This document shows positions 9,357 through 32,321 of a stretch of 33,640 bases of DNA, in pieces. Every line of letters begins with the position of its first letter. Position 1 is the first letter of the stretch. The notes below the pieces were generated by a model. That model was not told the origin of the DNA. It made no database searches and saw nothing but the letters and a program-made list of their open reading frames with translations. This stretch comes from a virus (taxonomy: Duplodnaviria; Caudoviricetes), in the IMG/VR virus record IMGVR_UViG_3300028588_000064, positions 1-33,640 of that record; one strand, 5' to 3'. The translations under genes were made by a program, and so were the position numbers.

Positions 9357-9797
9357 GTGGTCCACGAGAAGCAGAAGTCCGGCGATCCCGACTACGACGA
9401 CAAGGTCCCCGCCGACCAGCACGTCGGGCGGATGGTCATCGCCGGTGACGGTCGCGAGGTCCTGATCACCGAGGCCAACGGGCCCGTGAACCTGGACGGC
9501 TCGCACGCCAACCTGGACGACCCGAAGGGCGAGGCCGGCGACAACCGTCCGGCCCCGGGTGAGGTCGCGACCAAGGCGTCCGAGGTCCAGACCTACGACA
9601 CCAAGGCGATGCCGGCCAAGAACCTCGGCACGGCCAACAGCTCCCAGGAGCTGGATGACCTCCTGGCCCAGGACGGCCAGGAGACCCAGGAGCTTTCCAG
9701 CCAGCAGTCCGGCGACCAGGCCCGCGCGGAACAGGTCGAGGCTGAGCAGTCGGCGGCGCCCGCGGCGAAGCCGGCCCGGACCCGTACGGCCAAGTAG
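9357..9797 (+). CDS. Hypothetical acidic/low-complexity virion-region protein
   Basis: 146 aa ORF with AGGAAGGGG SD upstream. Confidence 0.7.
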   Translation: MVHEKQKSGDPDYDDKVPADQHVGRMVIAGDGREVLITEANGPVNLDGSHANLDDPKGEAGDNRPAPGEVATKASEVQTYDTKAMPAKNLGTANSSQELDDLLAQDGQETQELSSQQSGDQARAEQVEAEQSAAPAAKPARTRTAK

Positions 9798-9801
9798 TGC
9801 C

Positions 9802-9840
9802 CCGGGAGGCAGGTTCCTTGCAGGGTTCCCTGCCTCTCGG
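9802..9840 (+). terminator. Hairpin (possible terminator)
   Basis: CCGGGAGGCAGG/CCTGCCTCTCGG stem directly after the stop at 9797. Confidence 0.5.
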
Positions 9841-9876
9841 TCAAAACCCTGCCAACCCTGCTGGACAGGAGTCGTC

Positions 9877-10650
9877 GTGATGGACAAGGGAGCGGTCATC
9901 CCCAGCATGGTGGACGGTGGGCACTGGGCCTCCTGTTTCGGCCTGTCCTGGGCCGACATGCTGTTGCTCGATCAGGTCAGCCCGACCCCGCGGGTGATGC
10001 GGCCGGGCGGCCAGTACCTCCGCAACGTCGCCGGCACCATGGGCGTAGCCTCGGCCCGCAATGAGATCGTGGCCAACTTCCTGAACCTCCCACACCAACC
10101 CGAGTGGCTGTTCATGGTCGACACGGACATGGGCTTCACCGCGGACACCCTGGAGCGGCTGATCCAGTCAGCCGAGACGAACGGGGCGGCCGTGGTCGGC
10201 GCCCTCTGCTTCGCCCAGAAGTCCGACCCGCGGCAACCGGAGACGAACCTCCACGCACGCCGGCTCCGACTCGTCCCCACCCTGTACCGGTTCGTGGAGA
10301 CCCAGGACGAAAAGGGCTTCCTCTCGATCGAGAACTACCAGCGGGACAGCTTCCAGTGGGTGGATGCCACCGGCGCGGCCTGCCTCCTGATGCACCGCAC
10401 CGCCCTGGAGGCCGTCGGCCCGGACCCGTTCCGGCCGCTCCGGGTTCAGGGCGCCAACCCGGACGGATCCCCGCGGGAGTTCTCCGAGGACCTGTCCTTC
10501 TGCTCCCGGCTGGCCGACGTCGACATCCCGGTGGCCGTGGACACCAGCGTCAAGACCACGCATGCCAAGGGCGGGATCTTCCTGGACGAGGAGACGTACG
10601 TGGCCCAGCTCGCCGTGCGTAAGGCCAGCCCTCTCGGAGTCGCCGCGTGA
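9877..10650 (+). CDS. GT-A fold (family 2-like) glycosyltransferase
   Basis: ARNEIV, WLFMVDTDMGF (DxD), TGAACLLMHR, FSEDLSFC, TTH; AGGAG SD before GTG 9877. Confidence 0.85.
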   Translation: MMDKGAVIPSMVDGGHWASCFGLSWADMLLLDQVSPTPRVMRPGGQYLRNVAGTMGVASARNEIVANFLNLPHQPEWLFMVDTDMGFTADTLERLIQSAETNGAAVVGALCFAQKSDPRQPETNLHARRLRLVPTLYRFVETQDEKGFLSIENYQRDSFQWVDATGAACLLMHRTALEAVGPDPFRPLRVQGANPDGSPREFSEDLSFCSRLADVDIPVAVDTSVKTTHAKGGIFLDEETYVAQLAVRKASPLGVAA

Positions 10651-11666
10651 CCGCCAACGGCTACACCGGCAACCCGCCGGGTGGAGGCGGCGGCGGCGGG
10701 TCGACGGCCTGGGTCGACATCACCGGCAAGCCGGCCACGTTCCCGCCGTCGGCGCACACCCAGGCAGCCAGCACGATCTCGGACTCCACCACCGTGGGCC
10801 GGGCCGTCCTCACCGCCGCGGACGCCTCCGCCGGCCGGGCAGCCCTTGGGGCGGAGGTGTCCGGTGCCGCCACCACCGCGGTCGCCGCGCACGTCGCTGC
10901 CGGGGACCCGCACGCTCAGTACGCGCTGGACACCGACGTGGCGCTCAAGGCGCCGCTGGCGTCCCCGACGTTCACGGGTACGGTCGCCGGCATCACCAAG
11001 ACCATGGTTGGCCTGGGGTCCGTTGACAACACGGCCGACACCGCGAAGCCGGTCAGCACGGCCCAGCAGACCGCGCTGAACCTCAAGGCCGATCTGACGT
11101 CCCCGGCCCTGACCGGCAACCCGACGGCACCGACCCAGGCGGCCCTGAACGCCTCCACCCGCATCGCCACCACGGCGTACGTGGACAGCGCAGTCAGTGC
11201 GGGAGGCGGCGGCGGAGGTGGGACCGCGGCTACCTTCGCGCGCGGGTACGTCACGTCCGGGAACATCACGCCCGGCCTGACCGCAGCATGGACACCGATC
11301 ACCGGACTGGCGTTCTCCCTCGCCGCGGTGGCAGGCGATGATGTCGAATTCACCATGAACGGCCTCCTGGACCAGAAGGCGACCAGCTTCTTCGACCTGG
11401 CCGTGCTGGTGTCCGGTTCGATCGTCCGCTACGCCAGCACGGGCACCGGCTCGCCGTCGCCCGCGGGCGAGGGTGACGGCGCCACCTACCCGCTGAACGG
11501 GTCGGCGCTGCGGCCCCTCAACGCGTACTTCTCCCTGTCGGTGGTGTCCGGCGACCTGACCGGCGGCACGGTTACATTCGCCCTGATCTACAAGGGCGAC
11601 GCTCTCGGCAAGGTGTTCGCGTCCACCGACTTCCCGCTGCGCTGGAGGATCCGCAATGACCACTAG
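10647..11666 (+). CDS. Fibre-like structural protein (head/neck fibre)
   Basis: Fibre repeats WVDITGKPATFPPSAHT, GLGSVDNTADTAKPVSTAQQTAL, SPALTGNPTAPT..IATTAYV; poly-Gly hinges; beta-rich C-terminus. Confidence 0.7.
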   Translation: MTANGYTGNPPGGGGGGGSTAWVDITGKPATFPPSAHTQAASTISDSTTVGRAVLTAADASAGRAALGAEVSGAATTAVAAHVAAGDPHAQYALDTDVALKAPLASPTFTGTVAGITKTMVGLGSVDNTADTAKPVSTAQQTALNLKADLTSPALTGNPTAPTQAALNASTRIATTAYVDSAVSAGGGGGGGTAATFARGYVTSGNITPGLTAAWTPITGLAFSLAAVAGDDVEFTMNGLLDQKATSFFDLAVLVSGSIVRYASTGTGSPSPAGEGDGATYPLNGSALRPLNAYFSLSVVSGDLTGGTVTFALIYKGDALGKVFASTDFPLRWRIRNDH

Positions 11667-12543
11667 CGTTGTCCGGGGCGCGCCCGCCACCCTCTTGGCG
11701 GAATGGCGCCTGTACGCGGGCGGCCCGTACGCCGACGTGACCGGCGTGACCATCGCGGTGGTCAGAATCGTGGACAGCGTCGTTGTCCTGTCCACGACGA
11801 CCACCGGAGTGACCAGCCCGGCCGTTGGCATCAACGCCTACGTCTGGACACCCGCGCCGTCCCTGACCATCGGGGACTATCTGGTCACCTGGACAGGGAC
11901 AGACCCGGACAGCGAAATTGTCCAGGCGACCGAGGTGGTCACTGTCCAGGCGGGCGGCGCCCTCGGCGGGCCGTACGCGGACCGAGCCACCCTGAAGCGG
12001 CGCATGGGCATCCCCGACACGGACACCCTCCAGGACGGCGACGTAGACGACGCACTGTCCAGCGCGTCCGACGCCATCAACCAGTTCACCGGCCGGCAGT
12101 TCGGCCAGGCCTCCGAGGCGTCCACAAGGACGTACGTTGCCGGGCCCAGCGGCGTGGACACCGACGATTTCTGGACCACCGACGGCCTGCTGGTGAACGG
12201 GTCCAGCACGACGTATGCCCTTGAGCCGGCCAACGGCATCGTCAACGGTGTCCCCGGCTGGCCGTACAGTCGCCTGGTCAGCCCGTACAACGGCCACCCG
12301 ATCTACGACTCGGGCAGCATGTTCGTCCTTGCGGTCGAGGTCACGGCCCGGTGGGGCTGGGCCCGGGTCCCCAGCTCGATCAAGTCAGCGTGCCTGATGC
12401 TGGCCGCCGACACCCTAAAGTCCAAGGACGCACCTTTCGGGGTGGCGGGCTTCGGTGACTACGTCGTCCGGGTCCGGGCCAACCCGAAGGTGGCCGAGCT
12501 GCTGGCCCCGTACGTGCGCGACCCGATCAAGGCCGGGTCCTGA
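11656..12543 (+). CDS. Head-to-tail adaptor with extra N-terminal beta domain
   Basis: YADRATLKRRMGI, ASDAINQFTGRQF, VEVTARWGWARVPSSIKSACL, KDAPFGVAG. Confidence 0.8.
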   Translation: MTTSVVRGAPATLLAEWRLYAGGPYADVTGVTIAVVRIVDSVVVLSTTTTGVTSPAVGINAYVWTPAPSLTIGDYLVTWTGTDPDSEIVQATEVVTVQAGGALGGPYADRATLKRRMGIPDTDTLQDGDVDDALSSASDAINQFTGRQFGQASEASTRTYVAGPSGVDTDDFWTTDGLLVNGSSTTYALEPANGIVNGVPGWPYSRLVSPYNGHPIYDSGSMFVLAVEVTARWGWARVPSSIKSACLMLAADTLKSKDAPFGVAGFGDYVVRVRANPKVAELLAPYVRDPIKAGS

Positions 12544-12986
12544 TGGCCGCCTACGACCTGAACGCCATCGCGGACGCATTGGCCGCCGTCTTCCAGGGCA
12601 TGGACACGCGGACGTTCGACGGTGACCAAGAGGTGGTCACTTCGGTGTCCACCGCGGCCGGGGTGGCCAACGTTCCTGCGATCGTCATCGAGCTGGACGA
12701 CATCACGTGGGACATCACGATGGCCAGGGGTGCGGACAGTTTCGTCTTCCTGGCGTACCTTCTGGTGTCCAGCGCGGACAGCCCGGGTGGACAACGTCTG
12801 GTCAGACAGCTTCTGTCCACTGGTGGCCTGGCCGACCGGATCAAGGACGCGCTGGACAGTGACCAGACGTTGGGTGGCCTGGTTTCGTACGCGGTGGCCA
12901 CCGGAACCCGTACCATCGGCAATATCAACTATGCGGGCGCCGACTACCTCGGGGCCACGATTGAGATTCAGGTGGTTGCGCAATGA
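12543..12986 (+). CDS. Tail terminator / head-tail completion protein
   Basis: 147 aa, IKDALDSDQTLGGLV motif, position between adaptor and tail tube. Confidence 0.65.
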   Translation: MAAYDLNAIADALAAVFQGMDTRTFDGDQEVVTSVSTAAGVANVPAIVIELDDITWDITMARGADSFVFLAYLLVSSADSPGGQRLVRQLLSTGGLADRIKDALDSDQTLGGLVSYAVATGTRTIGNINYAGADYLGATIEIQVVAQ

Positions 12987-13705
12987 CCTTCGTCTTGGGC
13001 AACATTTCGCGCGTCCTGGTCAATGAGCGCCAGGTGTCCAGCACCCTGGCCGGCTACACGGCCAGCCACCAGCGGGCCGCCAGCGAGAGCACCGTGCTGA
13101 CCGATGGTGCCGCCCGGTTCGTACCCGGGCTGATGTCCGGCTCCCTGCTGCTGCGGGGTCCGCAGGACTCCGTCGGCCAGGACCTCGCCACCGAAATCAA
13201 GGACGCCATGGGCGTGGACAACGCCTTCTTGGCCACGGTGTGTCCGAATGGCCTGGCCATCGGCCAGTTCGCCATGACCATCCTGGGCGACTTGAACGAG
13301 CACAGTGTGGACGCCACTGTCTCCGATATCTCGTCCTTCTCGATGACCGCCCAGGCCGACGAATCGGTGGACATGGGGTTCATCGTTCACGCCCTCCAGG
13401 CCGAGACGGTCGACGGGAACGGCGCGACGGTGGACCGCGGGGTCGGATCGACCACGACCGGCGGCGGCGTTGCCGTCCTCCACCTCACCGCGTACGCCGG
13501 CCTGACAAACATCATCGTGAAGATCCAGCACTCCACGGACAACTCCGCATGGTCCGACCTGGTCACGTTCACCACCGCGACCGCGGTCGGGGCAGAGCGC
13601 AAGTTCCTCGCCGCCGGTACGACCATCAACCGCTACGTCCGGGCCGTCACCGATGTGACCGGCACGGGATCGGCCACCTTCCTGGTGGCCTTCGCACCTC
13701 GATAA
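12983..13705 (+). CDS. Tail-tube-like protein with C-terminal extra domain
   Basis: N-terminal half aligns by eye with the next gene; C-terminal KIQHSTDNSAWSDL..RYVRAV beta-sandwich. Confidence 0.6.
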   Translation: MTFVLGNISRVLVNERQVSSTLAGYTASHQRAASESTVLTDGAARFVPGLMSGSLLLRGPQDSVGQDLATEIKDAMGVDNAFLATVCPNGLAIGQFAMTILGDLNEHSVDATVSDISSFSMTAQADESVDMGFIVHALQAETVDGNGATVDRGVGSTTTGGGVAVLHLTAYAGLTNIIVKIQHSTDNSAWSDLVTFTTATAVGAERKFLAAGTTINRYVRAVTDVTGTGSATFLVAFAPR

Positions 13706-13720
13706 CCACCGGGAGAGATC

Positions 13721-14146
13721 ATGTTCGTGCACGGCAAGGACGCAGTCTTCAGCCTGGACGACGCCGCGGGTACGCTGCGCGCCGTCAAGGGCTACCTCAA
13801 CACCGTGTCCGGCCTTCCCGGCGGCCGTGGCCTGTCGGAGACGACCGCCTTCGGTGACCAGGGCACCCGGAACATCCCCGGCCTGGCGAACACGACCTTC
13901 AGTGTGGCCGGCCACTTCGATACCACCGCATCGGTCGGTATCACCACCGTGCTGAACGGCCTTCGGACGGCGACCGCCACGGCCACGTTCGAGTACGGCC
14001 CGGAAGGCTCGGCGTCCGGCAAGGTCAAGTATTCGGGGGAGTGCTGGCTGACGGAGATGACCGTCGACGCCAGCGTGTCCGACCGGGTGCCGATCGCCGC
14101 CACTTTCCAGGTGGACGGTGTCGTCGCCGTCGGCACGTACCCGTAA
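13721..14146 (+). CDS. Major tail (tube) protein
   Basis: ETTAFGD..IPGL, FEYGPEG, YSGECWLT, ATFQVDG motifs; position. Confidence 0.75.
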   Translation: MFVHGKDAVFSLDDAAGTLRAVKGYLNTVSGLPGGRGLSETTAFGDQGTRNIPGLANTTFSVAGHFDTTASVGITTVLNGLRTATATATFEYGPEGSASGKVKYSGECWLTEMTVDASVSDRVPIAATFQVDGVVAVGTYP

Positions 14147-23016: not shown

Positions 23017-23358
23017 TCAGCTCGGGATCGAGAGGGGGGCCCAGCGCTGGAGGTAGTGCCAGTCCTCGTTACCGAACTCCTGGAAGGTGCGACCGCCGAT
23101 CCACTTCCCGTCTCCGCATCGAGTCCAGGAGTCGCCGTCCTTGTCAAAAACGGTGGTCCCGATCGAGGGCTCGCCGTTCTGGTCGGAGGCCGTCTCGGCC
23201 GGAACCACGGCGTTGACGCCCGCGGCCCAGGCAGAGAGGAAGCTCCCCACGCCGTTCAGGTCTTGAATCTGATCGGCGGCGATGGCGTTCTTGAGCGCGG
23301 TGGCCAGGGCGTTGACTGCCTCGGCCTTGGCCTTGATGAGTGCTCCGGTGTCCGTCAT
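23017..23358 (-). CDS. Hypothetical protein (leaderless)
   Basis: 113 aa; TGCTATAGT-TGAGCT-ATG directly upstream (hexamer 23365-23370). Confidence 0.8.
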   Translation of the reverse strand: MTDTGALIKAKAEAVNALATALKNAIAADQIQDLNGVGSFLSAWAAGVNAVVPAETASDQNGEPSIGTTVFDKDGDSWTRCGDGKWIGGRTFQEFGNEDWHYLQRWAPLSIPS

Positions 23359-23379
23359 AGCTCAACTATAGCAGACGTC

Positions 23380-23847
23380 TCAGCGCACGTCCACATGTAC
23401 GGCCACCGCGACTCCGCGGCGTGAGCGCCGACCATACTTCGCCCAGACGAACAGACCGAACATGCCCAGCACCGTCACCACCGCGGCGACCAGGCTGGCC
23501 GTCGACAGCGACATCAGCAGCCAGGCGAAGGCGGCCATAAGGGCGGCCAGGCCTAGCAGCACCAGGCCTACGGACCGGCACACCAGGGCCCAGCGGGGCG
23601 CGATCGGCCGGGGCGGCACCTTGACCACCCGGACGGCGTAGTGGCCGGCCCGCGGGCCGCTGGTCAACAGCCGGATCTCGCTGTCCGTCCGCTCGATCTC
23701 GCCGGCCCTCTGGCGCCGGCCGAGGGCGGCCAGCAGTTCCTTGCGGGTCGGCGCGGTCAGGTCCACCACCTGGCGCACCGTACCCACCGGGGCCGGACGC
23801 CGCTGGAGGACGGTAGCCGGCCGCTTCCGGGCAAGTTCCTGATTCAT
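23380..23847 (-). CDS. Membrane protein
   Basis: 155 aa, basic N-terminus, two C-terminal TM helices. Confidence 0.75.
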   Translation of the reverse strand: MNQELARKRPATVLQRRPAPVGTVRQVVDLTAPTRKELLAALGRRQRAGEIERTDSEIRLLTSGPRAGHYAVRVVKVPPRPIAPRWALVCRSVGLVLLGLAALMAAFAWLLMSLSTASLVAAVVTVLGMFGLFVWAKYGRRSRRGVAVAVHVDVR

Positions 23848-24344
23848 CGATTACTCCAAACGGTCATGACCAAGCTGGCCAGCAGGACGAGGACGCCGGC
23901 AGCTTGGATGGCCTGCCGGATGAAAACGTTGGCGCGGTAGGTGATGGCCCCGGCGTCCCGGGCGGCCCGCTGCGCGCGCTGGCGGGACAGGGTGACCCGC
24001 CGCGGATTCCAGTGGTTCTTGCGGTCGTTGTAGCGGGGCCAGAGCACCCACATGACCAGCGTCTCCAGGGGCCGCCGGACCCACGTCCAGTTAAGCCACC
24101 ACGGGAGCCGGATCAGCCGGTGGCACACCGCGTCCAGGTCCATCCAGGGCTTCTCGGTGGACTGCTGGACCGTGCCGTCCTCGCGGAGGTAGGCCGTCCG
24201 GCCTTCGTGGTCACGCTGGCGCCGCCGGAACGAGTTGGACTCCCCGACGTAGCCCCACTCCCGGCGGCGGGACGCGTGCTTGCGGGTGCGCCAGGCGTAG
24301 ACGCCACCGGCCCGCCGCCAGACCTTGCGGAGCCAGTCACCCAC
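23844..24344 (-). CDS. GIY-YIG nuclease-like protein with C-terminal TM anchor
   Basis: GGVY..YVGES..RRRQRDH..LET..PRYN, then AAGVLVLLASLVMTVW. Confidence 0.7.
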   Translation of the reverse strand: MGDWLRKVWRRAGGVYAWRTRKHASRRREWGYVGESNSFRRRQRDHEGRTAYLREDGTVQQSTEKPWMDLDAVCHRLIRLPWWLNWTWVRRPLETLVMWVLWPRYNDRKNHWNPRRVTLSRQRAQRAARDAGAITYRANVFIRQAIQAAGVLVLLASLVMTVWSNR

Positions 24345-24585
24345 GGCGATCGACCTTCTCCAGGATCAGGAAGCATTCGCCGCTGGTGCTGGCCTCGGCG
24401 ACATAGGCCCGGAACGTGGCGTACGGGTGCTCACCAGTCACGTACTGGCCGAGGTGCGCCAAGGCCCAGGCGAGGTCGTCATCGGTCAGGTTGGACAGGG
24501 TGACGTTGCCGTGGGGCTTACGCGTCCACGCGATGAACGTCCGGCCGTCGACCACCAGCGGGGTCGGGGGTAGTGCTCGGGGCAT
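24337..24585 (-). CDS. Hypothetical protein, 82 aa
   Basis: AGGAGG SD 4 nt before ATG 24585; start re-assigned. Confidence 0.7.
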   Translation of the reverse strand: MPRALPPTPLVVDGRTFIAWTRKPHGNVTLSNLTDDDLAWALAHLGQYVTGEHPYATFRAYVAEASTSGECFLILEKVDRRG

Positions 24586-24690
24586 TCGTCCTCCTGAACT
24601 GGAAAGTCCGACCCGGGCGATTGGTAGCACCGAGCCGGACGATCATCGGGCCGGTTCAGACGTTAGGGGGTCGTACCGGCAACTCCGCCC

Positions 24691-24772
24691 TATACGTCAA
24701 CTATAGCCGACGTGCCAGCTCACCGCAACGCCCTAGCAGACCAACTATAAGTGATCTATTATAAAAGGTATG
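24691..24772. promoter_or_regulatory. Divergent promoter region
   Basis: Leftward TATAGT at 24700-24705 and 24744-24749; rightward TATTAT at 24757-24762, 7 nt before ATG 24770; locally AT-rich. Confidence 0.65.
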
Positions 24773-25141
24773 CCTAGTTGGTTCGACGTCGATGCGCCTG
24801 ACACGTCCTGGAGGGCATCCTCCGAGGACCCCATACCTCTGCTCATGGGCCGGTGGCCCATCACCGCCTTCTTGTACCGCTGGTGCGCCTGCCGGCCCCT
24901 GGACGGCCACGCCCGGACGGACGCCGGCTTCCTCACTCCCGGCACGAAGGCGTTCACCAAGACCGGCCGGGCGGCGCCGTACCAGTTCTGGCCCGGCTGG
25001 AAACGGGGCCTGTTCACCCGCCTGCCGATCAACCTGTTCCTGCTGTCCCTGCTGACCGCGTACCTGATCAGCGGCTGGGGTGGCCTCGGCTCATACCTCC
25101 ACGCCTACTGGACGGTGATCGCATGGTGCTTCACCTGGTGA
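24770..25141 (+). CDS. Trp-rich membrane protein
   Basis: 123 aa, C-terminal TM segment(s); stop overlaps the FtsK-like gene start. Confidence 0.7.
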   Translation: MPSWFDVDAPDTSWRASSEDPIPLLMGRWPITAFLYRWCACRPLDGHARTDAGFLTPGTKAFTKTGRAAPYQFWPGWKRGLFTRLPINLFLLSLLTAYLISGWGGLGSYLHAYWTVIAWCFTW

Positions 25142-26613
25142 TCTGGCTGGCCAAGACCCTGGCCTACTGCGCACCGCTACTCGCCGCCGCCGCCGCGGCA
25201 TGCGTGATCGTCTTCACCTGGCGCGCTGCCGCCGGCAGGGTGGCCGTCGTTGGTCGCCGGCCGCGGGAGTACGTCGTGCCGATCGAGGCGGCGGCGGCCA
25301 CCCTGCTGAAGACCCGGCCCGGGGTCGTCCGCATGGTCATGGACGCCGGGCTGCTCACCGAGGACACCAGCGCCCGCGGTCGGCTCACCCTGCCCCTGTC
25401 GTGGGTCGGCACGGACACCGAACGGGACAGCCTCCTGACCCTGGTGCGGTCCCGGCTCGGCACCGACCTGGTGGCCGCCCGGTTCAAGCTGGCCGGCCAC
25501 GCACCGCATATGCAGCTCTACGTGCCGCCGCAGCCTCCCCCGTTCGTGAGCTGGGAGCGCTTCCTGGAGCTGGCCGACCCGATCTCGCCCTACCTCGGGG
25601 ACGCCGCGGGTGGCCGTGCGGTCCGGTGGGACCTCGGCGACGACAGCCCGCACATGGGCATCATCGGCGGGTCCGGCGTCGGCAAGAGTGAGTTGATGGC
25701 CGCGGTCACGGCCCAGTTCATGCGCGCGGGTGCCGGCGTCATCGTGCTCGACCCGAAGGCCACTTCCCACCGCTGGCTCATGGACATCGACGGCGTGCTC
25801 TACTGCGGCGAGCGCCGGATGCTGTTCGACACGGTGATGTGGCTGGACGACGTGATGAATGACCGCATCGCCCAGAACCTCCGGGTGGCCGATGACATCG
25901 ACTTCCCGCGGATCGTCATCCTGCTGGAGGAACGCAACAGCCTCCAGGACAAGCTCCGGGACGCCTGGGCGGAGATCCGGGTCAGTGGCCAGCCGCAGAT
26001 GTCGCCGGCCATCAAGGCCCTGGACAGGCTGTCCAGCATGGGCCGGTCGATCAACATCAACGTGATCCTGGGTGGCCAGGAGACGGCCCAGCAGGTCATC
26101 GGGCGCCGCAGCAACTACGGGGCCTTCTCCGTGGGTGGCCGCACCGCCGAGGGCCACTGGCGCAACATCGGGGTCAAGAAGCCGGCGATCTCGTCCAGCC
26201 CCGGCCGGTTCGGCTACGTGGTGGCCGGTCAGGTCCAGGTCTTCCAGGCCCCGTACATGGACCTGAAGCAGGAGCGCGCGCGTCTGGTGGCCTGGGCGAC
26301 CGGCGGCGAGCCCCTCCTGGACGTCCGGGCCATGATGTCGTCACACGATGCGGGGGTGCCTTTCCCCAGCTCAGAGCCTGTAGACACGACGACAGGTGGG
26401 TCGGGGGACCTCTGGCTGGTCGAACAGGCCGGCGACCGGGTCACCCTGCCCCAGTGGGCGGCGTCGTGCGGCTTGAACGTGGCCACCGTCCGGCAGTGGT
26501 CGACGCGGTACCCGGAGTTCCCGGCGGCGGTCGGCACGCTGGGCCGGTCTCGGGCGTTCAGCCGGGAGGCCCTGGACGCCTGGCGCGAGGAGCATCGGTC
26601 CGCCAGCGCCTGA
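25123..26613 (+). CDS. FtsK/SpoIIIE (TraB-like) ATPase with N-terminal TM and C-terminal HTH
   Basis: SPHMGIIGGSGVGKS (Walker A), VLDPK, RIVILLEE (Walker B), MGRSININVILGGQ, PGRFG; C-term LPQWAASCGLNVATVRQWSTRYPEFP..AFSREALDAW; start 25123 or 25138. Confidence 0.85.
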   Translation: MVLHLVIWLAKTLAYCAPLLAAAAAACVIVFTWRAAAGRVAVVGRRPREYVVPIEAAAATLLKTRPGVVRMVMDAGLLTEDTSARGRLTLPLSWVGTDTERDSLLTLVRSRLGTDLVAARFKLAGHAPHMQLYVPPQPPPFVSWERFLELADPISPYLGDAAGGRAVRWDLGDDSPHMGIIGGSGVGKSELMAAVTAQFMRAGAGVIVLDPKATSHRWLMDIDGVLYCGERRMLFDTVMWLDDVMNDRIAQNLRVADDIDFPRIVILLEERNSLQDKLRDAWAEIRVSGQPQMSPAIKALDRLSSMGRSININVILGGQETAQQVIGRRSNYGAFSVGGRTAEGHWRNIGVKKPAISSSPGRFGYVVAGQVQVFQAPYMDLKQERARLVAWATGGEPLLDVRAMMSSHDAGVPFPSSEPVDTTTGGSGDLWLVEQAGDRVTLPQWAASCGLNVATVRQWSTRYPEFPAAVGTLGRSRAFSREALDAWREEHRSASA

Positions 26614-26614
26614 C

Positions 26615-26761
26615 CTACGCCCGGACGATCTCAATCGTCCGGGCGTAGCGGTTGCTGGACAGTCGGTCCGCCTCGGCGGTGGCCTCGGCGTAGGTCATGG
26701 CGTGAAGGGTGATCGTGCCGCAGTGGGGGCCAGTGATCCGGAGTGTCCATTCCTTCGTCAT
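26615..26761 (-). CDS. Leaderless 48 aa protein (not in ORF track)
   Basis: MTKEWTLRITGPHCGTITLHAMTYAEATAEADRLSSNRYARTIEIVRA; TATAGT 6 nt upstream. Confidence 0.7.
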   Translation of the reverse strand: MTKEWTLRITGPHCGTITLHAMTYAEATAEADRLSSNRYARTIEIVRA

Positions 26762-26828
26762 ACCCCTACTATAGCAGACGTCTAGCTGGACAGCAAGAAG
26801 GCCCTGGACATCGTGTCCAGGGCCTTTC
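26759..26828 (-). repeat. Cassette boundary 1 (terminator hairpin + leaderless promoter)
   Basis: AAGGCCCTGGACA-TCG-TGTCCAGGGCCTT hairpin, then on minus strand TTGCTG-17 nt-TATAGT-6 nt-ATG. Confidence 0.8.
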
Positions 26829-26835
26829 CGGTGGA

Positions 26836-27042
26836 TCAGGAGATGCGAGGGAAGTCGATGCCGACTGCAATCAAGAGTGCTCGCGCCAAGTCAACCGCCT
26901 CAGTTTCAGAGAGAACCTTGGTGACCTCGTCGCCATCCTTGCCGACCAGGGTCATGTCCACCACGAGGCCAGACGACAGGTGCATCGCCGTGACTTCGAT
27001 GTCCTCGCGGCCGGTCTGAATGGTGTTCATCTGCGTCGTCAT
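26836..27042 (-). CDS. Leaderless hypothetical protein, 68 aa
   Basis: ORF fills the space between two cassette boundaries. Confidence 0.75.
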   Translation of the reverse strand: MTTQMNTIQTGREDIEVTAMHLSSGLVVDMTLVGKDGDEVTKVLSETEAVDLARALLIAVGIDFPRIS

Positions 27043-27111
27043 ACCCCTACTATAATCGACGTCTCCCTAGATCACAAGAAGGCCCTGGACATGATGTCCA
27101 GGGCCTTCTTG
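27040..27111 (-). repeat. Cassette boundary 2
   Basis: CAAGAAGGCCCTGGACA-TGA-TGTCCAGGGCCTTCTTG hairpin; TTGTGA-17-TATAGT-6-ATG. Confidence 0.8.
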
Positions 27112-27112
27112 G

Positions 27113-27157
27113 TCAGCGTCCGCCGCAGCAGGGACACTGGCATCCAGCCGGATGCAT
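27113..27157 (-). CDS. Cys-rich micropeptide, 14 aa
   Basis: MHPAGCQCPCCGGR; GGGGGTGA SD-like element upstream; ends at terminator. Confidence 0.45.
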   Translation of the reverse strand: MHPAGCQCPCCGGR

Positions 27158-27162
27158 CCTGA

Positions 27163-28053
27163 TCACCCCCTTTCAGGGTTCATGCTCGGGAGCCACCAGT
27201 CCTGGCGGCGGATGGTCTTGTCACTGGTTCCGAAGTGTCCAGCCAGAAGCTCCGCGATGTCCTTGGCCAGCAGGCCGTTGTCCTTGCCAATCCTGGCCAG
27301 CGCGGCACCCTCGATCGGGTCGATGACCACGCGGCTGGACACTCGCCGTGTCCGCGGCTGGACAGGACCCTGGACAACCGGAACGGCCGGCGTGGTCGTG
27401 GTGTCCTGGACACGGCTGGACAGTCCAGCCAGCCAGCTCTCCGTCTCGCTGGCCAATTCCTGACCAAGCTGTCCAGCTGCCCTGTCCGCGTCCTTGGCCG
27501 CGCTGGTCAGTTCGGCATTGTCCAGCTGTCCAGCGAAGGCAGCCTCCGACTCGGCGACGTCCTGGACACTGGCCACCGGCACTGTCCACTGTCCGGCCGG
27601 GTTGTCCAGCGCAATGTCCACGGCCTGGTCACTGCCGTTGTCCATCGGCTGGACACGACGCGCCTGGACAACTCTGTCCAGGGCGAGGGCGGCCAGGACC
27701 ATGGCGGCGTCGATGGCCACCGGGCCGGCGTACCGGCTGGCCACGTCGTAGCCGTAGTGGGACAGGACGTTGGCCAGGTGCCAGTACGAGATCCACGCGG
27801 CCGTGCTGCCCACGAGGATCAGGACCGCGACCTTGGTGATGCCGTCCCGCCAGGAGGCCAGCCACGGCGTGTGAATCAGCAGTTCCACGACCCCGAACAG
27901 GGCCAGCGGCCAGGCGGTGGCGGAGATGTACGCGCCGACGCCGGGCTGGGCGTTGTCCAGGTTGATGGCCTGGAGGTTGCCGGCCAGAGAGGCGGCCACT
28001 CCGAGGACGAGGACTGTGGTGGCCACGACCAGCGGCCTGCGGTGGTTGCTCAT
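27163..28053 (-). CDS. DUF2637-like multi-pass membrane protein with C-terminal HTH
   Basis: Four TM helices (ASLAGN, WPLALF, AAWISYWHL, GPVAIDAAM), linker, LLAKDIAELLAGHFGTSDKTIRR. Confidence 0.7.
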   Translation of the reverse strand: MSNHRRPLVVATTVLVLGVAASLAGNLQAINLDNAQPGVGAYISATAWPLALFGVVELLIHTPWLASWRDGITKVAVLILVGSTAAWISYWHLANVLSHYGYDVASRYAGPVAIDAAMVLAALALDRVVQARRVQPMDNGSDQAVDIALDNPAGQWTVPVASVQDVAESEAAFAGQLDNAELTSAAKDADRAAGQLGQELASETESWLAGLSSRVQDTTTTPAVPVVQGPVQPRTRRVSSRVVIDPIEGAALARIGKDNGLLAKDIAELLAGHFGTSDKTIRRQDWWLPSMNPERG

Positions 28054-28136
28054 ACGTCAACTATAACAGAGGTACGCCTGGACAACAAGAAGCCCTGGAC
28101 ACTTCGGTGTCCAGGGCTTCCGGTCAGGCTGGTCAG
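28051..28136 (-). repeat. Cassette boundary 3
   Basis: About 85 bp nearly identical to 28307-28391; hairpin GAAGCCCTGGACA-CTTCGG-TGTCCAGGGCTTC. Confidence 0.85.
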
Positions 28137-28309
28137 CCGTTGAGTTGTCGCGCTCGTCGCTGGGCCCAGCCCTCGGCGGCGTAAGTCCTGCTTGCTGGCA
28201 CGGGCTCGCCCGGGGAGCCGTAGGGTCGAGTGTCCATCACTTGATAGCGCGAATAGTCCACCAGGTAAACCTGGTAACGAGGGGGGAGGCTAACGGTCGG
28301 CGTCGTCAT
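28133..28309 (-). CDS. Leaderless 58 aa protein (not in ORF track)
   Basis: MTTPTVSLPPRYQVYLVDYSRYQVMDTRPYG...AEGWAQRRARQLNG; start and stop fall exactly in the flanking repeats. Confidence 0.7.
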   Translation of the reverse strand: MTTPTVSLPPRYQVYLVDYSRYQVMDTRPYGSPGEPVPASRTYAAEGWAQRRARQLNG

Positions 28310-28391
28310 ACATCAACTATAGCAGAGGTACACCTGGACAACAAGAAGCCCTGGACACCGAAGTGTCCAGGGCTCTGGTCAGGCTGGTCAG
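28307..28391 (-). repeat. Cassette boundary 4
   Basis: Direct repeat of 28051-28136 with the hairpin loop inverted. Confidence 0.85.
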
Positions 28392-28447
28392 AATCCCGTG
28401 CAGTACAGGCACTTGCAGTCTTCGGGGTGTCCCTCAACGTGTCTCAT
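28388..28447 (-). CDS. Cys-rich micropeptide, 19 aa
   Basis: MRHVEGHPEDCKCLYCTGF; own TATAGT (28455-28460) upstream and terminator downstream. Confidence 0.6.
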   Translation of the reverse strand: MRHVEGHPEDCKCLYCTGF

Positions 28448-28451
28448 ACCA

Positions 28452-28490
28452 TCCACTATAGCGGAGGTCGGCTTCCTCGGCTATAGTGGA
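28452..28490. promoter_or_regulatory. Back-to-back promoters forming an inverted repeat
   Basis: TCCACTATAGCGGAGG-7 nt-CCTCGGCTATAGTGGA, 15/16 match. Confidence 0.75.
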
Positions 28491-28520
28491 GATATAAGCC
28501 ACACAGACGGGAGCACGACA

Positions 28521-28643
28521 ATGCGAGGAAGTTTCAACGGTCCGCAGCGGCCCACCGAGGTCCAGACCCCGGCCGGCCGGAAGGTCATCGAGAAGATCAT
28601 GGCGGAGCGCCCGCCGACCCCGGCCGGACAGCACCGGCGCTGA
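28521..28643 (+). CDS. 40 aa hypothetical protein
   Basis: GGGAG SD, downstream of rightward TATAGT 28482-28487. Confidence 0.55.
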   Translation: MRGSFNGPQRPTEVQTPAGRKVIEKIMAERPPTPAGQHRR

Positions 28644-28644
28644 G

Positions 28645-28755
28645 ATGGCCAAGCCCAAGAGCACGATCCGGGTAGGCCAGCGGAACGGCAAGATCGTGGT
28701 GACCAAGCCGGGCAAGGGCCTGGTGGACAAGGTCCTCAAGAAGCTCGGGAAGTAG
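28645..28755 (+). CDS. 36 aa Lys-rich peptide (not in ORF track)
   Basis: MAKPKSTIRVGQRNGKIVVTKPGKGLVDKVLKKLGK; near-perfect GC3 codons; terminator follows. Confidence 0.65.
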   Translation: MAKPKSTIRVGQRNGKIVVTKPGKGLVDKVLKKLGK

Positions 28756-28757
28756 GA

Positions 28758-28784
28758 AAGGCCCGGACCACTGGTCCGGGCCTT
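28758..28784. terminator. Bidirectional terminator
   Basis: AAGGCCCGGACC-ACT-GGTCCGGGCCTT between convergent genes. Confidence 0.75.
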
Positions 28785-28790
28785 CTGCTG

Positions 28791-29090
28791 TCACCGGTCA
28801 CCCGGCCAGGGCGGGAACCGCCATTCGTCCTCGCCCGGCTCGGGCACCAGCCATACCGTCGGCGCCCGGTGGACACCGGCTCGGGCTGCGGGTGGCCCCT
28901 GGTCGAGCCGGGTCGTCGCGCCGTCCTTGGTCCACTCCGCGTGGCTCGGATAGTACGGCTCCTGCTGGGCCGCCTTCTCCCGGTCGATCTGATCCGCCAC
29001 GATCACCAGAACGCAAAGGCTGGCCGCCGCCGCAGCGACGACCAGCAGGAGAACGGATACCAGGGTCACAGCACGTGCCGGTGTCGACAC
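28791..29090 (-). CDS. Membrane protein, about 99 aa
   Basis: N-terminal TM; start re-assigned to GTG 29090. Confidence 0.6.
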   Translation of the reverse strand: MSTPARAVTLVSVLLLVVAAAAASLCVLVIVADQIDREKAAQQEPYYPSHAEWTKDGATTRLDQGPPAARAGVHRAPTVWLVPEPGEDEWRFPPWPGDR

Positions 29091-29260
29091 TGGAAATCCA
29101 CGTGCACCTCGGCGTTGGCGATGGCCTCGTCGATCGGCCGGACGGCGTCGTTCTTGGCGCCGCACTGGCACACCCAGCCGTAGTCGCCGTCCTCGTTTGG
29201 CTTGGTCAGGGCCACCTTCGGGTTGGCGTCGCGGTCGCCCGCCACCGTGATTCGTGCCAT
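29066..29260 (-). CDS. Small CxC..H protein, 64 aa
   Basis: MARITVAGD..YGWVCQCG..AEVH; GGAGG SD and TGATG overlap. Confidence 0.7.
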   Translation of the reverse strand: MARITVAGDRDANPKVALTKPNEDGDYGWVCQCGAKNDAVRPIDEAIANAEVHVDFQCRHRHVL

Positions 29261-29454
29261 CACAACCACCTCCGCAACTGGGCCACCCGCAGCCAGCACA
29301 GCGAGAAACACAGGGTCAGGGCGGTGGCGCTCACCACGGCGAGCCAATCGGTGTCTCCGTCCAGCTGGCGCAACGACCACACCAGCAGCGCCGTGACGAC
29401 CAGGGCGACCCAGGTCATGGTCCGCGCGTTCCGCTTCCGGTTCTCTTCGGTCAT
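29260..29454 (-). CDS. Leaderless two-TM protein, 64 aa
   Basis: TGCTATAGT-AGACGT-ATG (hexamer 29461-29466). Confidence 0.7.
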   Translation of the reverse strand: MTEENRKRNARTMTWVALVVTALLVWSLRQLDGDTDWLAVVSATALTLCFSLCWLRVAQLRRWL

Positions 29455-29473
29455 ACGTCTACTATAGCAGGCA

Positions 29474-30016
29474 TCAGGCCCGACGCACACGAGGCCGACC
29501 AGCGGAAATCCAGGTGATCACCCTGGCCTCAGCCAGGGAGAGCAGCACACCGACCGCGCCGGGCAGCACGACCGGGAGCGCCAGCAGCGACATGCCCAGG
29601 ACCTTGCCAGCATCCCGGGCGAAGCCACGACCGTAGGCGCGCCGCCGGTTGAACAGAGCACCCCACCGGACAGCCGTCCACCCGAGCCAGCGCTTGGGCC
29701 ACCCCACGCCGAGGTCCCGCATGGCCACCCGGAAGATCGCATCCGTGTCGCGGGAGTCGGCCGGCGGCGTCTGGTTGTACTCGTCAGCCAGCTCCGTCAG
29801 CAGCCAGTCATGGAGCACGGCCGCTCGGGTATACGCGCCGTACGGCAGGAACAGCCAGTGCAGGAATCGCGGCACGGTGGCGAAGTCGGTCAGGAAGCCA
29901 GCCGGCACAGTGAACGTCTGCGTCTCACCCGTCCAGACGAGATCCTCGGTCAGGGCCCAGGTGGTCGGGCTCGCGGCGCGCACGGCCAGCTCGGTGGCGA
30001 ATCCACGTTCGGTCAT
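29474..30016 (-). CDS. DUF1353 family protein
   Basis: FTVPAGFLTDFATVPR..YTRAAVLHDWL..DAIFRVAM..AVRWG plus C-terminal TM. Confidence 0.85.
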   Translation of the reverse strand: MTERGFATELAVRAASPTTWALTEDLVWTGETQTFTVPAGFLTDFATVPRFLHWLFLPYGAYTRAAVLHDWLLTELADEYNQTPPADSRDTDAIFRVAMRDLGVGWPKRWLGWTAVRWGALFNRRRAYGRGFARDAGKVLGMSLLALPVVLPGAVGVLLSLAEARVITWISAGRPRVRRA

Positions 30017-30246
30017 GCGATCCACTCTCGCAGCATTCCGGCCACGGCACCGGTAGTAACGAGTCGGCCAGCTCGCTCGTACTCGTCAGCCATGGCCTCG
30101 ATCTTGGCTCGCAACTCGGCCAGCTCGCTCGTCGCCGTAACGGTCGGTACCGGGCCACGAGCCTTCCGGATCTCGTCCCGCACGAACTGCTGGAGCTGGC
30201 TCACCTGGGTCGAATCAAGTTTGACGGTGAACTTCTGCTCTGCCAT
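30013..30246 (-). CDS. Hypothetical protein
   Basis: 77 aa, GAGAGGA SD, ATGA overlap. Confidence 0.7.
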   Translation of the reverse strand: MAEQKFTVKLDSTQVSQLQQFVRDEIRKARGPVPTVTATSELAELRAKIEAMADEYERAGRLVTTGAVAGMLREWIA

Positions 30247-30271
30247 GCGTCCATCCTCTCGCAGAAATGGG

Positions 30272-30307
30272 GCAGGGCCCGCACCCCTTCCCGAGTGCGG
30301 GCCCTGC
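30272..30307 (-). terminator. Hairpin terminator
   Basis: 13-bp stem GCAGGGCCCGCAC/GTGCGGGCCCTGC after gene ending at 30322. Confidence 0.6.
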
Positions 30308-30321
30308 TGATCGTGGTGGAT

Positions 30322-30879
30322 CTAGAACGCGTCCCCGTCCTCGGAGACCTTGAACGCGTCCACGATGACCTGACGGGCCTTGATGCGCACCGCCTTAATG
30401 TCCGGCTGAACGGCCAGCGCACTGTCCTCGTCCGTCGGCGGATTGGGACGCCACGCGGCGGCCTTGCCCTTCATGGCCTTGGCGTCGATCCGGCCCAGGA
30501 GCCCCTTCGGGACGCCGTTGTTGCTCTTGGGGTCCTTGCCCTGAAGCCGGGCGACGACGCCGCCGGCCGACCACTGGAAGTTGGTCAGGACCTGGGGACC
30601 CTCCTCGGCGACCGAAGGCACGAGGTTCGGAACCATCGTGCTGGTGTCGTAGTTCATGACCATGGGCTGCCACCCGTCCGGGCCGTCGTCCAGGACGACC
30701 GTGACCGTCTCCATCCAGACGTACGGGCCGTTCTCACCCTGCCGGGTGCCGGTCTTGCCGGTCGGGTAGATCATGACCAGGCGGTCCTTGAGGTGGAACT
30801 TGCTGGCGAAGTCGTCCGAGGACGCCTCGAAGATGTCCTCATCGTCGTCCTGGCCGGCGTTCACGTTGACGTCAGTCAC
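30322..30879 (-). CDS. Hypothetical replication-region protein (possibly ssDNA-binding)
   Basis: 185 aa, strongly biased codons, acidic termini ending DGDAF; function is only a guess. Confidence 0.6.
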   Translation of the reverse strand: MTDVNVNAGQDDDEDIFEASSDDFASKFHLKDRLVMIYPTGKTGTRQGENGPYVWMETVTVVLDDGPDGWQPMVMNYDTSTMVPNLVPSVAEEGPQVLTNFQWSAGGVVARLQGKDPKSNNGVPKGLLGRIDAKAMKGKAAAWRPNPPTDEDSALAVQPDIKAVRIKARQVIVDAFKVSEDGDAF

Positions 30880-31162
30880 TGTGGTGGGTCCTGTTCTGGA
30901 GCTGGGATAGGAATTGGTGAAGAGGGGGCGGTCTGTAATCCCGACAATCGACGGTTAGCATCGCCGCCCCCTCAAGCCCGTCTCTCCGGGCATGTCACGG
31001 CAGATGCTTCCGTCCTCGCCGACCCAGTTTCCACGCGCCTGGCAGGGGAACGTCCGATCGTGCAACGTGTGCTACGGCCTACGCGACTTGTTACCGGTCG
31101 TGCCCTTGGCCCGTCTCGAACGGGCTGCCATGCCTAGGTACTGGGCAAGGGACCTTTTGATG
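30880..31162 (-). ncRNA. Candidate structured RNA with tRNA-like T-arm
   Basis: No convincing ORF; GCCCG-TTCGAGA-CGGGC stacked on CCCTTG/CAAGGG, second GCCCG/CGGGC hairpin, 10-bp closing stem. Confidence 0.45.
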
Positions 31163-31312
31163 CTAGCGCCGAGCCTGAAGCTCAGCGAGGGTGGTCTGGT
31201 TGGGTCGCGTGCTGGCGTTGGCGTCCTCACGCCGGGCCGCGGACTGCTGGCGTGCCTGGCTCTCTCGCGTCATGCCGCCCGAGTCGCCGTTGCGGGTGTT
31301 CGACTTCAGCAT
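31163..31312 (-). CDS. 49 aa hypothetical protein
   Basis: MLKSNTRNGDSGGMTRES...LAELQARR, the 3' part of ORF 31163..31513. Confidence 0.45.
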   Translation of the reverse strand: MLKSNTRNGDSGGMTRESQARQQSAARREDANASTRPNQTTLAELQARR

Positions 31313-31415
31313 GCTGCTGGTGTCCCGTCTGCTGGTTGGTGGGCGGCGAGGGCGCTTGCCCGAGGTGTTCTCAGAACTGCCTCCATCGGGAGGCCCTCGC
31401 CGCTTCGGTTGATGA

Positions 31416-31475
31416 TCAGGTCCAGTCGTTCTCGCCCCGGACCTCCAGGAAGTGCCACTCCACGTCCTTGCGCAT
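31416..31475 (-). CDS. 19 aa micro-ORF
   Basis: MRKDVEWHFLEVRGENDWT with strong AGGAGGTG SD, first ORF after promoter at 31516. Confidence 0.45.
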   Translation of the reverse strand: MRKDVEWHFLEVRGENDWT

Positions 31476-31507
31476 CTGCTCACCTCCTGTGGTGCGCTTC
31501 CTTGCTG

Positions 31508-31544
31508 ATACACCCACTATAGCGGACGTCCCCAGGGCCCGCAA
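31508..31544 (-). promoter_or_regulatory. Promoter (leadered copy of motif)
   Basis: TTGCGG-17 nt-TATAGT (31516-31521). Confidence 0.7.
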
Positions 31545-31547
31545 CCC

Positions 31548-32321
31548 CTACTTCCCGGGGCACCCGTTCTCGTCCGTCAGCTGGCCCGGCCGCCGGAACG
31601 GGCACCACCAGCACTTAGACGACGGCGTGGCCCGGACATCCAGAACACTGCCGCCGGCATCCATGTGGGCCTTGATCTGCCGGTACCGCTCGATGGCCTC
31701 CAGCGCCAGGGTCCTGTTATACGGCTCGGTCCACTCCTCGGAGTCGTCGAACTTCCAGGACCGGGCCAGCAGAACCAGCCGCACCGCCCGCACCCGCCGC
31801 CCCAGCAACTCGTACCCGCGGCCGTAGAGGTGCGCCTGGACCCGGTACTCCGGGCTCACGGTGCCCTTGTCCCGTAGCTCTTTCAGCGCCGTCACGCCAA
31901 CGTGCTTCCAGTCCACGACCGTCTCGTGGTCGGTGTCGTAGGCGTCGGCCTCGCCGGTGATGTCGTCCGCCACCTGGAGCCGGGCGATCGGCAACCAGCG
32001 TTCCCGGCCTTCCCTCGCGTTCCAGAACCGGATCACGTCGGTCATGGAGTTGTGCACGGCCGTGCCCTGGAACGGCGCCCAAGCCGGCTCCTGGGCGGGT
32101 GGCTGCGGTCCGGCGGCCAGTTTCCGGGCAATCTGCTGTGCGCACGGCGTCCCCAGCTCGGACGGGCCCAGGGCCACCTGCTGGGAGCGTGGCCGCTGGT
32201 GTTCGTAGTCGATCAGGACGTCGCGGAGTTCATGCAGAGTGCTCGGGACGCCGTGCTGAGCCGGCCAGCGCGTGGGGGCCCGAGCCGACTCGAACAGGTC
32301 GTCATCGTCCAGGTCGGTCAC
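31548..32321 (-). CDS. Cas4/RecB-like PD-(D/E)xK exonuclease
   Basis: GPSELGTPC, GTAVH, GEADAYD, VVDWK, QAHLYG, CWWCPF..C; GTG 32321 overlaps helicase stop. Confidence 0.88.
   Translation of the reverse strand: MTDLDDDDLFESARAPTRWPAQHGVPSTLHELRDVLIDYEHQRPRSQQVALGPSELGTPCAQQIARKLAAGPQPPAQEPAWAPFQGTAVHNSMTDVIRFWNAREGRERWLPIARLQVADDITGEADAYDTDHETVVDWKHVGVTALKELRDKGTVSPEYRVQAHLYGRGYELLGRRVRAVRLVLLARSWKFDDSEEWTEPYNRTLALEAIERYRQIKAHMDAGGSVLDVRATPSSKCWWCPFRRPGQLTDENGCPGK

Follow-up and report, generated by a model that had tools for sequence, protein, structure and literature searches.

The viral contig IMGVR_UViG_3300028588_000064 (33,640 bp, the whole of which is referred to here as the window) belongs to a high-GC siphophage and carries, between the tail genes and the replication genes, a compact set of genes for membrane and DNA-handling proteins. 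On the plus strand is the gene of a 496-amino-acid (aa) FtsK-fold ATPase (25123-26613) with transmembrane (TM) helices, a motor and a C-terminal excisionase/MerR-like helix-turn-helix (HTH) domain, preceded by a separate 123-aa open reading frame (ORF) for its N-terminal part (24770-25141). On the minus strand lie the genes of a 296-aa, weakly DUF2637-like protein with four TM helices, a flexible linker and a C-terminal HTH domain (27163-28053; TM-HTH below), and of a 166-aa predicted nuclease of GIY-YIG type that has a membrane anchor at its C-terminus (23844-24344). The main cluster of the hexamer TGGACA/TGTCCA, with 33 sites, spans 26656-28370; 18 sites are inside the TM-HTH gene and the rest are mostly in flanking hairpins and promoters. 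The left part of the window holds terminase, portal, protease, capsid, tail and tape-measure genes, and the right part exonuclease and helicase genes. Near-complete relatives have genomes of 42-45 kb, and therefore about 9 kb, including the primase region, is absent from this contig. Identical proteins are encoded on another contig, of 42,821 bp.

An earlier note on this DNA had compared the locus to the TraB/Spd systems of Streptomyces plasmids, in which TraB pumps double-stranded DNA (dsDNA) and drives intramycelial plasmid spread together with SpdB2, a four-TM pore former (PMC4447253). The comparison holds in part: the module is real and conserved, and we read it as a variant of TraB/Spd on the genome of a phage that forms virions.

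A membrane-anchored FtsK-type motor

The AlphaFold (AF2) model of the ATPase (mean predicted local distance difference test score, pLDDT, 87) matched the FtsK motor 6t8o (Foldseek E 1.6e-14) and TcpA (6o1w, E 4e-14), with the match to HerA weaker by eight orders of E-value, and a profile of 39 homologues searched against the PDB found the conjugative coupling protein TcpA (E 2e-12). Walker A occupies residues 182-189, and G185/G187/K188, E269/E270 and Q319 are invariant. Hydrophobic segments at residues 2-20 and 25-43, plus 82-100 in the upstream ORF, form an N-terminal membrane anchor, and the C-terminal domain (about residues 440-496) gives a weak HTH_17/excisionase match (E 0.002). The model points to a membrane-anchored motor of the FtsK/SpoIIIE-type fold, predicted to translocate dsDNA, in keeping with the TM- and HTH-bearing ATPase that had been described from the letters alone.

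Its closest relatives with an annotation come from plasmids of Streptomyces, which account for 61 of the 76 plasmid records. These pRL2.11-like 'Tra/FtsK/DUF87' proteins (for example on the linear NZ_CP108657.1) are 26-31% identical to the phage protein, with a profile E of 3.5e-86, and share with the phage ATPases the same N-terminal motif and the same type of C-terminal HTH; the two form one clade. In a motor tree of 37 domains (four of 41 rows, in which no Walker A pattern was located, were dropped), the phage ATPases fell into three clades, which cluster together with one pRL2.11-like protein from a plasmid and with Dagobah gp87 (support 100/98), and the TraB proteins of pSN22, pJV1 and pWTY27 lay outside. 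The pRL2.11-like lineage has one plasmid representative in the trees, and its exact place within the clade differs between two of them. The ATPase thus resembles TraB in build yet is not a classical TraB but a pRL2.11-like protein, and of the TraB-like ATPase first proposed, the FtsK/TcpA fold stands and the assignment to the pSN22/pJV1/pWTY27 type does not. FtsK-like genes are already known in Streptomyces phages, their role without a test (PMC13587820). The window ATPase is about 25% identical to clade B, and one ATPase of that clade has a single partial match among cultured phages, Streptomyces phage Dagobah (MT711977.1, L061:2547-3476). Its relative is an unannotated 309-aa protein (gp87) whose annotated ORF lacks the TM part, and it is a possible experimental handle in a cultured phage.

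Most homologues of the ATPase are about 580 aa long, with the N-terminal part fused to the motor. In the window this part, comprising the 'RPLDG' region and a TM helix, is the separate upstream ORF, which aligns with the first 92 positions of the ATPase profile (E 5e-41). A frameshift artefact is ruled out, as the junction is free of indels in contigs from four runs (record 19 of X6 spans it; X1 and X2 may be source runs), and in relatives at 78-86% identity the ATPase starts at the same residue. The L020 ATPase is likewise split. Splits in the TM region were seen across lineages, in the window group and L020, with short forms in P0090, P0106, P0118 and P0122, which suggests repeated fission of the ATPase into two subunits.

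A four-TM protein with homologues in conjugative elements

The TM-HTH protein has four hydrophobic segments, and its AF2 model has four TM helices joined by a loose linker to a compact C-terminal domain of three helices (about residues 240-296, pLDDT 93-98), so the four-TM protein with a C-terminal HTH was read correctly from the start. The window protein has no Pfam match. Among its homologues, 49 of 85 match DUF2637 weakly (E<=0.05) and 15 match HTH_23; many distant homologues pass the DUF2637 cut-off across one third of the model. The family comprises 1,741 clusters at E<=0.001. Foldseek matched the model to actinophage membrane/HTH proteins, among them phiC31 gp25 (E 0.013), which in turn matches Spd proteins of pSN22 and pJV1. 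A fold search of the PDB gave nothing at E<=0.001, and the plasmid collection gave no match to the protein, including beside the plasmid-borne pRL2.11-like ATPases.

Chromosomal homologues are found mostly in AICEs, the integrative and conjugative elements of actinomycetes. A scan of 68 selected ORFs over 18 chromosomal loci showed that 15 of the 18 adjoin AICE markers (FtsK, RepSA/prim-pol-type or integrase genes). The best matches (E down to 6e-37) are in Micromonosporaceae AICEs of pSAM2/pMEA type, which combine an FtsK Tra with RepSA or prim-pol and an integrase, and there the homologue adjoins the Tra and Rep genes. Given this setting, an AICE origin and a filamentous host would both be expected, and the module was likely acquired from actinomycete conjugative elements. 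Unlike the phage module, these AICEs have Tra proteins of other lineages and a GIY homologue in none of the 18 loci. The kinship with conjugative elements that had been proposed therefore stands as far as AICEs are concerned; homology to SpdB2 was not shown.

The TM-HTH family also bears on the host. It occurs in 77/151 genomes in Micromonosporaceae (the family of G007) versus 1/151 in Streptomycetaceae (the family of G006), the latter on a small phage-like contig. The count of 77 takes in the unpublished genome G075, and no claim depends solely on it. The top terminase matches are actinophages (35-38%). The source is a soil phage that likely has a filamentous actinobacterial host, and this distribution makes a filamentous member of the Micromonosporaceae the likely host.

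A conserved, linked set of genes

The earlier note had set co-occurrence in relatives as a test of its proposal. A GIY-YIG profile identified 17 GIY-anchored viral loci, two of which are from the same phage. The ATPase is adjacent in 16 of them, and the TM-HTH gene lies beyond it in 14; every miss coincides with a contig end. The query alignment contained seven of the 17 loci plus the duplicate; in the nine loci outside it the ATPase was present in eight and the TM-HTH gene in six, with the same three contig-end misses. Linkage is thus kept in relatives. A search with only the capsid protein found two near-complete records. All three genes are present in G161, and none is in G162, which is a provirus and has an integrase and a repressor. 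The module slot is occupied by ATPases of three distant clades. In phages with different head genes (L016, L017 and L045) the ATPase gene comes before a four-TM HTH gene of another type, and these two and a GIY or TM gene are arranged in another order; in L017 and L045 the pair is accompanied by a GIY homologue. Because three ATPase clades share the slot and other phages carry the set reordered, selection on function is indicated. The set is a conserved four-gene phage module.

The GIY-YIG protein has 272 homologues. G14/Y16, G31/Y32/G34, R42, H46, E94 and N106 are invariant in all eight aligned sequences, and we take the Tyr, Tyr, Arg, His, Glu and Asn among them to be catalytic-type residues. 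Pfam GIY-YIG matches are weak (E 0.005-0.06, in three of the eight), the nearest Atlas clusters are GIY-YIG (score 0.87-0.90), no sequence match was found in the PDB, and the one C-terminal TM segment is borderline. With these qualifications the membrane-anchored GIY-YIG protein is confirmed. No homologue was found in 401 Actinomycetes genomes, in a search whose sensitivity is limited because it missed the divergent G007 copy.

A hexamer selected at the DNA level

Of the 83 TGGACA/TGTCCA sites on the contig, 33 fall within the 1.7 kb of 26656-28370, where 5000 uniform random placements gave a maximum of 17. The TM-HTH coding sequence alone has 18 sites against 3.8 +/- 1.3 in synonymous recodings, none of 2000 recodings being as high, and 16 of the 18 are in linker codons 125-238. 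A repeat driven by the protein is ruled out by this recoding test and by the occurrence of sites in five strand/frame classes. The hexamer in the TM-HTH gene is selected at the DNA level. Site spacings are periodic only in multiples of three, as coding DNA would give. The dense hexamer array seen earlier is therefore genuine, but the sites are dispersed in both orientations (16/17) and are not a tandem array. Three of ten minus-strand TATAGT promoters, including that of the TM-HTH gene, have a hexamer over the -35 region or spacer.

A second cluster (11656-12986) covers the head-tail adaptor and tail terminator genes, with 8 sites versus 0.95 expected and 6 versus 1.5 (0/500 recodings each). 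It is also present in G001, G002 and G161 and absent in G003, G004 and G162. A genome-wide enrichment of the motif in carriers was unsupported: outside the module, observed/expected ratios were 1.3-2.05, versus 1.2-2.0 in G162 and phiC31.

The motif follows the TM-HTH recognition helix

The earlier note had supposed that the repeats are clt sites, or TraB recognition sequences (TRS), read by the ATPase. Comparison across phages gave a different picture. Among 34 phage TM-HTH genes, 28 encode a recognition helix of the form [RK][TQ]xR[RG] and six encode other helices; TGG(A/C)CA exceeded all 60 recodings in 26 of the 28, versus none of the six. Some of the other-helix genes carry words of their own (GGGACA, CGTGAG, GGAGA), and five of the six belong to phages with an ATPase of the window's own clade. 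The ATPase genes are enriched in the motif in helix-bearing phages (13/13 of clade B, the window and L026; unclear in L018, L044, L024 and L119) and exceed all recodings in 0/5 other-helix phages. At the TM-HTH promoter the motif clusters in the window, L009, L018 and L044. Since the motif follows the TM-HTH recognition helix and not the ATPase tree, the simplest reading is that TM-HTH, rather than the ATPase, is the predicted binder of the hexamer sites. Nothing resembling a residue-level code that would distinguish TGGACA, TGGCCA and CGGACA was seen. Among chromosomal TM-HTH homologues the TGG(A/C)CA array occurs in 0/33, a further difference between the AICEs and the module, and any hexamer at p<1e-3 in two.

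That the C-terminal HTH of the ATPase reads the hexamers as a clt, as TraB does, we regard as quite improbable. TraB-type proteins do bind short repeats beside or within their own gene (PMC3583192, PMC4447253), the motif is in 13/13 clade B ATPase genes, and the window array begins 43 bp past the ATPase stop. The sites, however, are balanced between the strands (16/17) or, as TGGCCA, palindromic. ATPases from three clades whose C-terminal helices are unlike share the motif, and yet it varies among close clade-A ATPases, L017 having GGGACA and L018 TGGCCA. A tree uniting the three motif-bearing clade-A ATPases was rejected (approximately unbiased test, p 2e-6), the group having been chosen after the first tree had been seen.

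It is more improbable still that the array is an additional element for replication to which the primase-helicase binds, unrelated to the membrane proteins. Origin-like arrays past the primase/helicase gene do use the same word in G004, L016, L017 and L045, but in G001, G002, G003 and G161 the post-primase words are different while the TM-HTH gene keeps TGG(A/C)CA. Origin-like arrays of this kind, with direct and inverted repeats and a word that differs in most phages, were observed at L050:15690-16100, L046:11100-11700, L053:18450-18910, L055:9700-10560, L177:560-1700, L045:8690-8940 and L016:500-760. A self-array in phiC31 gp25 (L069:36291-37007; CTGAGC, 9 versus 1.6 expected) is not claimed, because all copies are on one strand and several lie in a Pro-Glu repeat.

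Relation to known transfer systems

The module resembles the TraB/Spd systems of pSVH1, pSN22, pJV1 and pWTY27 in having an FtsK-fold ATPase that is anchored by TM helices and carries a DNA-binding domain at its C-terminus, adjoined by small TM genes and by a protein composed of four TM helices, a linker and a C-terminal helix (PMC4447253). It differs in its ATPase lineage, in an extra GIY-YIG gene and in residing on a virion-encoding genome. SpdB2 binds DNA non-specifically (PMC4447253), whereas the phage TM-HTH is predicted to be sequence-specific. No TraR/Kor-type repressor is encoded in the window, and a small Xre-type HTH gene divergent from the ATPase was seen in G003 only.

Other elements share single aspects. 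The plasmid-phage pZL12 is also a virion-encoding element and transfers by tra and two adjacent genes (PMC3583192, PMC4487206); it is a large ParAB plasmid-phage (PMC4487206), whereas the relatives studied here are 42-45 kb and have ParA in 0/5. SpdA2/sps of pIJ101 is, like TM-HTH, a DNA-binding protein with palindromic sites in its own coding region (PMC4170104), but it is a 135-aa protein with a 12-bp palindrome in two to three copies, where the phage has a four-TM protein and tens of 6-bp sites. phiC31 gp25 and the lone DUF2637/membrane-HTH genes of MalagasyRose, MrMagoo, Jace and Gengar have the same four-TM (+HTH) build by Foldseek; phiC31 gp25 and Gengar gp69 have no ATPase or GIY partner annotated alongside, and phiC31 integrates. 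A phage module of ATPase, TM-HTH and GIY-YIG protein was not found described in the full-text literature searched, which left most subscription journals outside its scope.

A possible route through the mycelium

We propose that TM-HTH acts as a membrane tether for phage DNA and the ATPase as the pump that moves it across hyphal cross-walls, a reading to which we give an even chance. TM-HTH would bind the TGG(A/C)CA sites, holding the genome at the membrane, and may also regulate its own promoter. The ATPase would need no oriented clt of its own to load onto the tethered DNA, and would pump dsDNA over cross-walls or into touching hyphae. As the weakest step, the membrane-anchored GIY-YIG protein might cut DNA there, trimming replicating or trapped DNA to passable pieces. 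Neighbouring compartments could then be infected without a free virion or prior lysis. Mature Streptomyces mycelium is less susceptible to infection from outside (PMC10117723), and a route inside the filament would therefore be valuable to a phage. We advance more tentatively, as somewhat short of an even chance, the general form of this proposal: that a widespread group of uncultured, non-integrating tailed phages with filamentous actinobacterial hosts spread their genomes from cell to cell without virions, and that a membrane HTH adaptor whose gene encodes its own binding sites, not the pump captured from plasmids, picks the substrate. An adaptor of this kind would explain how the DNA motif could persist when the pump is exchanged between distant lineages, and such phages would offer a parallel in bacteria to the movement proteins of plant viruses.

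Several points weigh against this reading. No member has been cultured, and the window ATPase and TM-HTH have no match in 50,697 phage records. The ATPase has EE, not DE, at the Walker B position, its profile matches the TraB proteins of pSN22, pJV1 and pWTY27 only at E 0.02-0.2, and no functional test of the pRL2.11-like lineage was met in the literature covered. A profile comparison of TM-HTH with plasmid SpdB2 (hhalign, 85 versus 4 sequences) gave a probability of 0.4%, and the DUF2637 matches of its homologues span only about positions 3-60 of 161. The module contains no oriented clt-like 8-nt repeat; no other 8-mer has four or more same-strand copies in 300 bp there. The 28 helix-bearing genes are kin, hence not independent, and their covariation with the motif is partly physical linkage because the main array is inside the TM-HTH gene. 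Two of them lack a TGG(A/C)CA excess (L024, with CGGACA instead, and L033, with none), and promoter clusters were seen in only 4 of 28 upstream regions, the promoter being unlocated in many. Nothing in the plasmid-spreading literature covered corresponds to a membrane nuclease. In L016 the ATPase and TM-HTH genes adjoin an integrase, without a GIY gene, and the pair is therefore not limited to non-integrating phages.

The same genes could instead maintain an extrachromosomal, plasmid-like prophage, TM-HTH and its sites acting as a membrane centromere and the ATPase clearing or distributing copies at septa and into spores, with no infectious spread. Tyrosine integrase, resolvase and ParA are absent from all five near-complete carriers (0/5), the integrating G162 lacks all three module genes, and unoriented, clustered sites are similar to parS-type arrays. 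The pIJ101 SpdA2 protein, which binds a palindrome in its own gene, affects stability and not transfer (PMC4170104), and the post-primase/helicase arrays of G004, L016, L017 and L045 contain the same motif. We nevertheless consider this explanation unlikely. Most relatives have no repressor-like Pfam match, small HTH proteins being seen only in G003 and G005; the lack of an integrase fits a virulent phage equally well; the G162 contrast is a single genome, and L016 has both integrase and pair; and the search with TM-HTH turned up no plasmid record that bears the module.

Exclusion or host take-over offers another explanation, in which the membrane proteins and the nuclease block or destroy incoming DNA, whether from superinfecting phages or from conjugative elements, or attack the chromosome of the host, with the ATPase feeding the nuclease and the hexamer marking self DNA or serving only regulation. 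ATPase-nuclease pairs such as HerA-NurA exist. The GIY-YIG gene is tightly linked, keeps its catalytic-type residues and looks phage-specific because it was not found in the 401 Actinomycetes genomes searched, and the minus-strand genes have early-type leaderless promoters. The ATPase, however, is nearer to FtsK and TcpA than to HerA and has retained both its TM anchor and an N-terminus of plasmid type, the pair in L016 has no GIY gene beside it, and the genome search would have passed over divergent copies such as that of G007. We think this explanation less likely again than prophage maintenance.

If phage DNA does spread through the mycelium in this way, choice of substrate would be separated from the motor in a TraB-like system, and DNA-transfer tools for Micromonosporaceae might be developed from it. 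It has been suggested in a line that spdB2 homologues on actinophages (phiC31, VWB) might help phage DNA to spread (PMC4447253). The module turns this suggestion into a testable form, with a gene set, a predicted binder and a predicted six-base site, and the natural variants with other sites (GGGACA, CGTGAG, GGAGA) suit swap tests.

Promoters and small genes of the module

The GIY-YIG gene is probably in the middle of a minus-strand operon. Its likely first gene is an ORF of about 72 aa (24337-24555) called from codon bias, which encodes a soluble protein without TM and has a homologue at 40% in L001. The likely last gene (23380-23847, minus strand) encodes a 155-aa protein with two TM helices (82-100 and 116-134); BLAST homologues lie beside the GIY gene in L001, L009, L119 and G161, and the same build was recognized by eye in G003 and G004. 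The divergent promoter region between this operon and the ATPase genes (24556-24769) contains a pair of TATAGT boxes on the minus strand, at 24700 and 24744, and no TGGACA site.

Three further minus-strand ORFs flank the TM-HTH gene. Those of 48 aa (26615-26761) and 68 aa (26836-27042) each have their own leaderless-type promoter, the former with a TGTCCA site overlapping the -35 region or spacer. The TM-HTH promoter and hairpin (28054-28132, minus strand; TATAGT, 6 nt, ATG) hold three hexamer sites, one of them over the -35 region or spacer, and the third ORF, of 58 aa, lies in a segment (28133-28374) with a near-duplicate of this promoter/hairpin unit (90% over 69 nt, repeat family D5). The earlier note had counted several other TM proteins at the locus; the 155-aa protein and the N-terminal ORF of the ATPase are such proteins, and five other small ORFs are without TM. 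Ten minus-strand TATAGT boxes occur in a conserved repeat at 23352-31550, and seven of them show the leaderless pattern of an ATG 6-7 nt downstream. The box also precedes TM-HTH genes in many relatives.

Other observations

A peptidoglycan-binding, endolysin-like gene, the sole one found, lies between the portal and prohead protease genes of the window (6494-6997) and is at the same place in G001-G004 and G161. Directly after the capsid genes is a glycosyltransferase gene (9559-10650), kept in relatives including the provirus G162, whose product may glycosylate the virion. Two neighbouring genes at 12983-14146 are major-tail-protein-like. Two relatives have peptidase inhibitor family I36 genes (L046:6784-7161 and L053:7861-8232), and in G005 a stretch of 2.5 kb without called genes (L059:9828-12366) contains many GATGCA/GCATCA repeats. 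Upstream of a distant TM-HTH homologue, at L006/L007:7165-8481, is a long array of about 17 repeated units.

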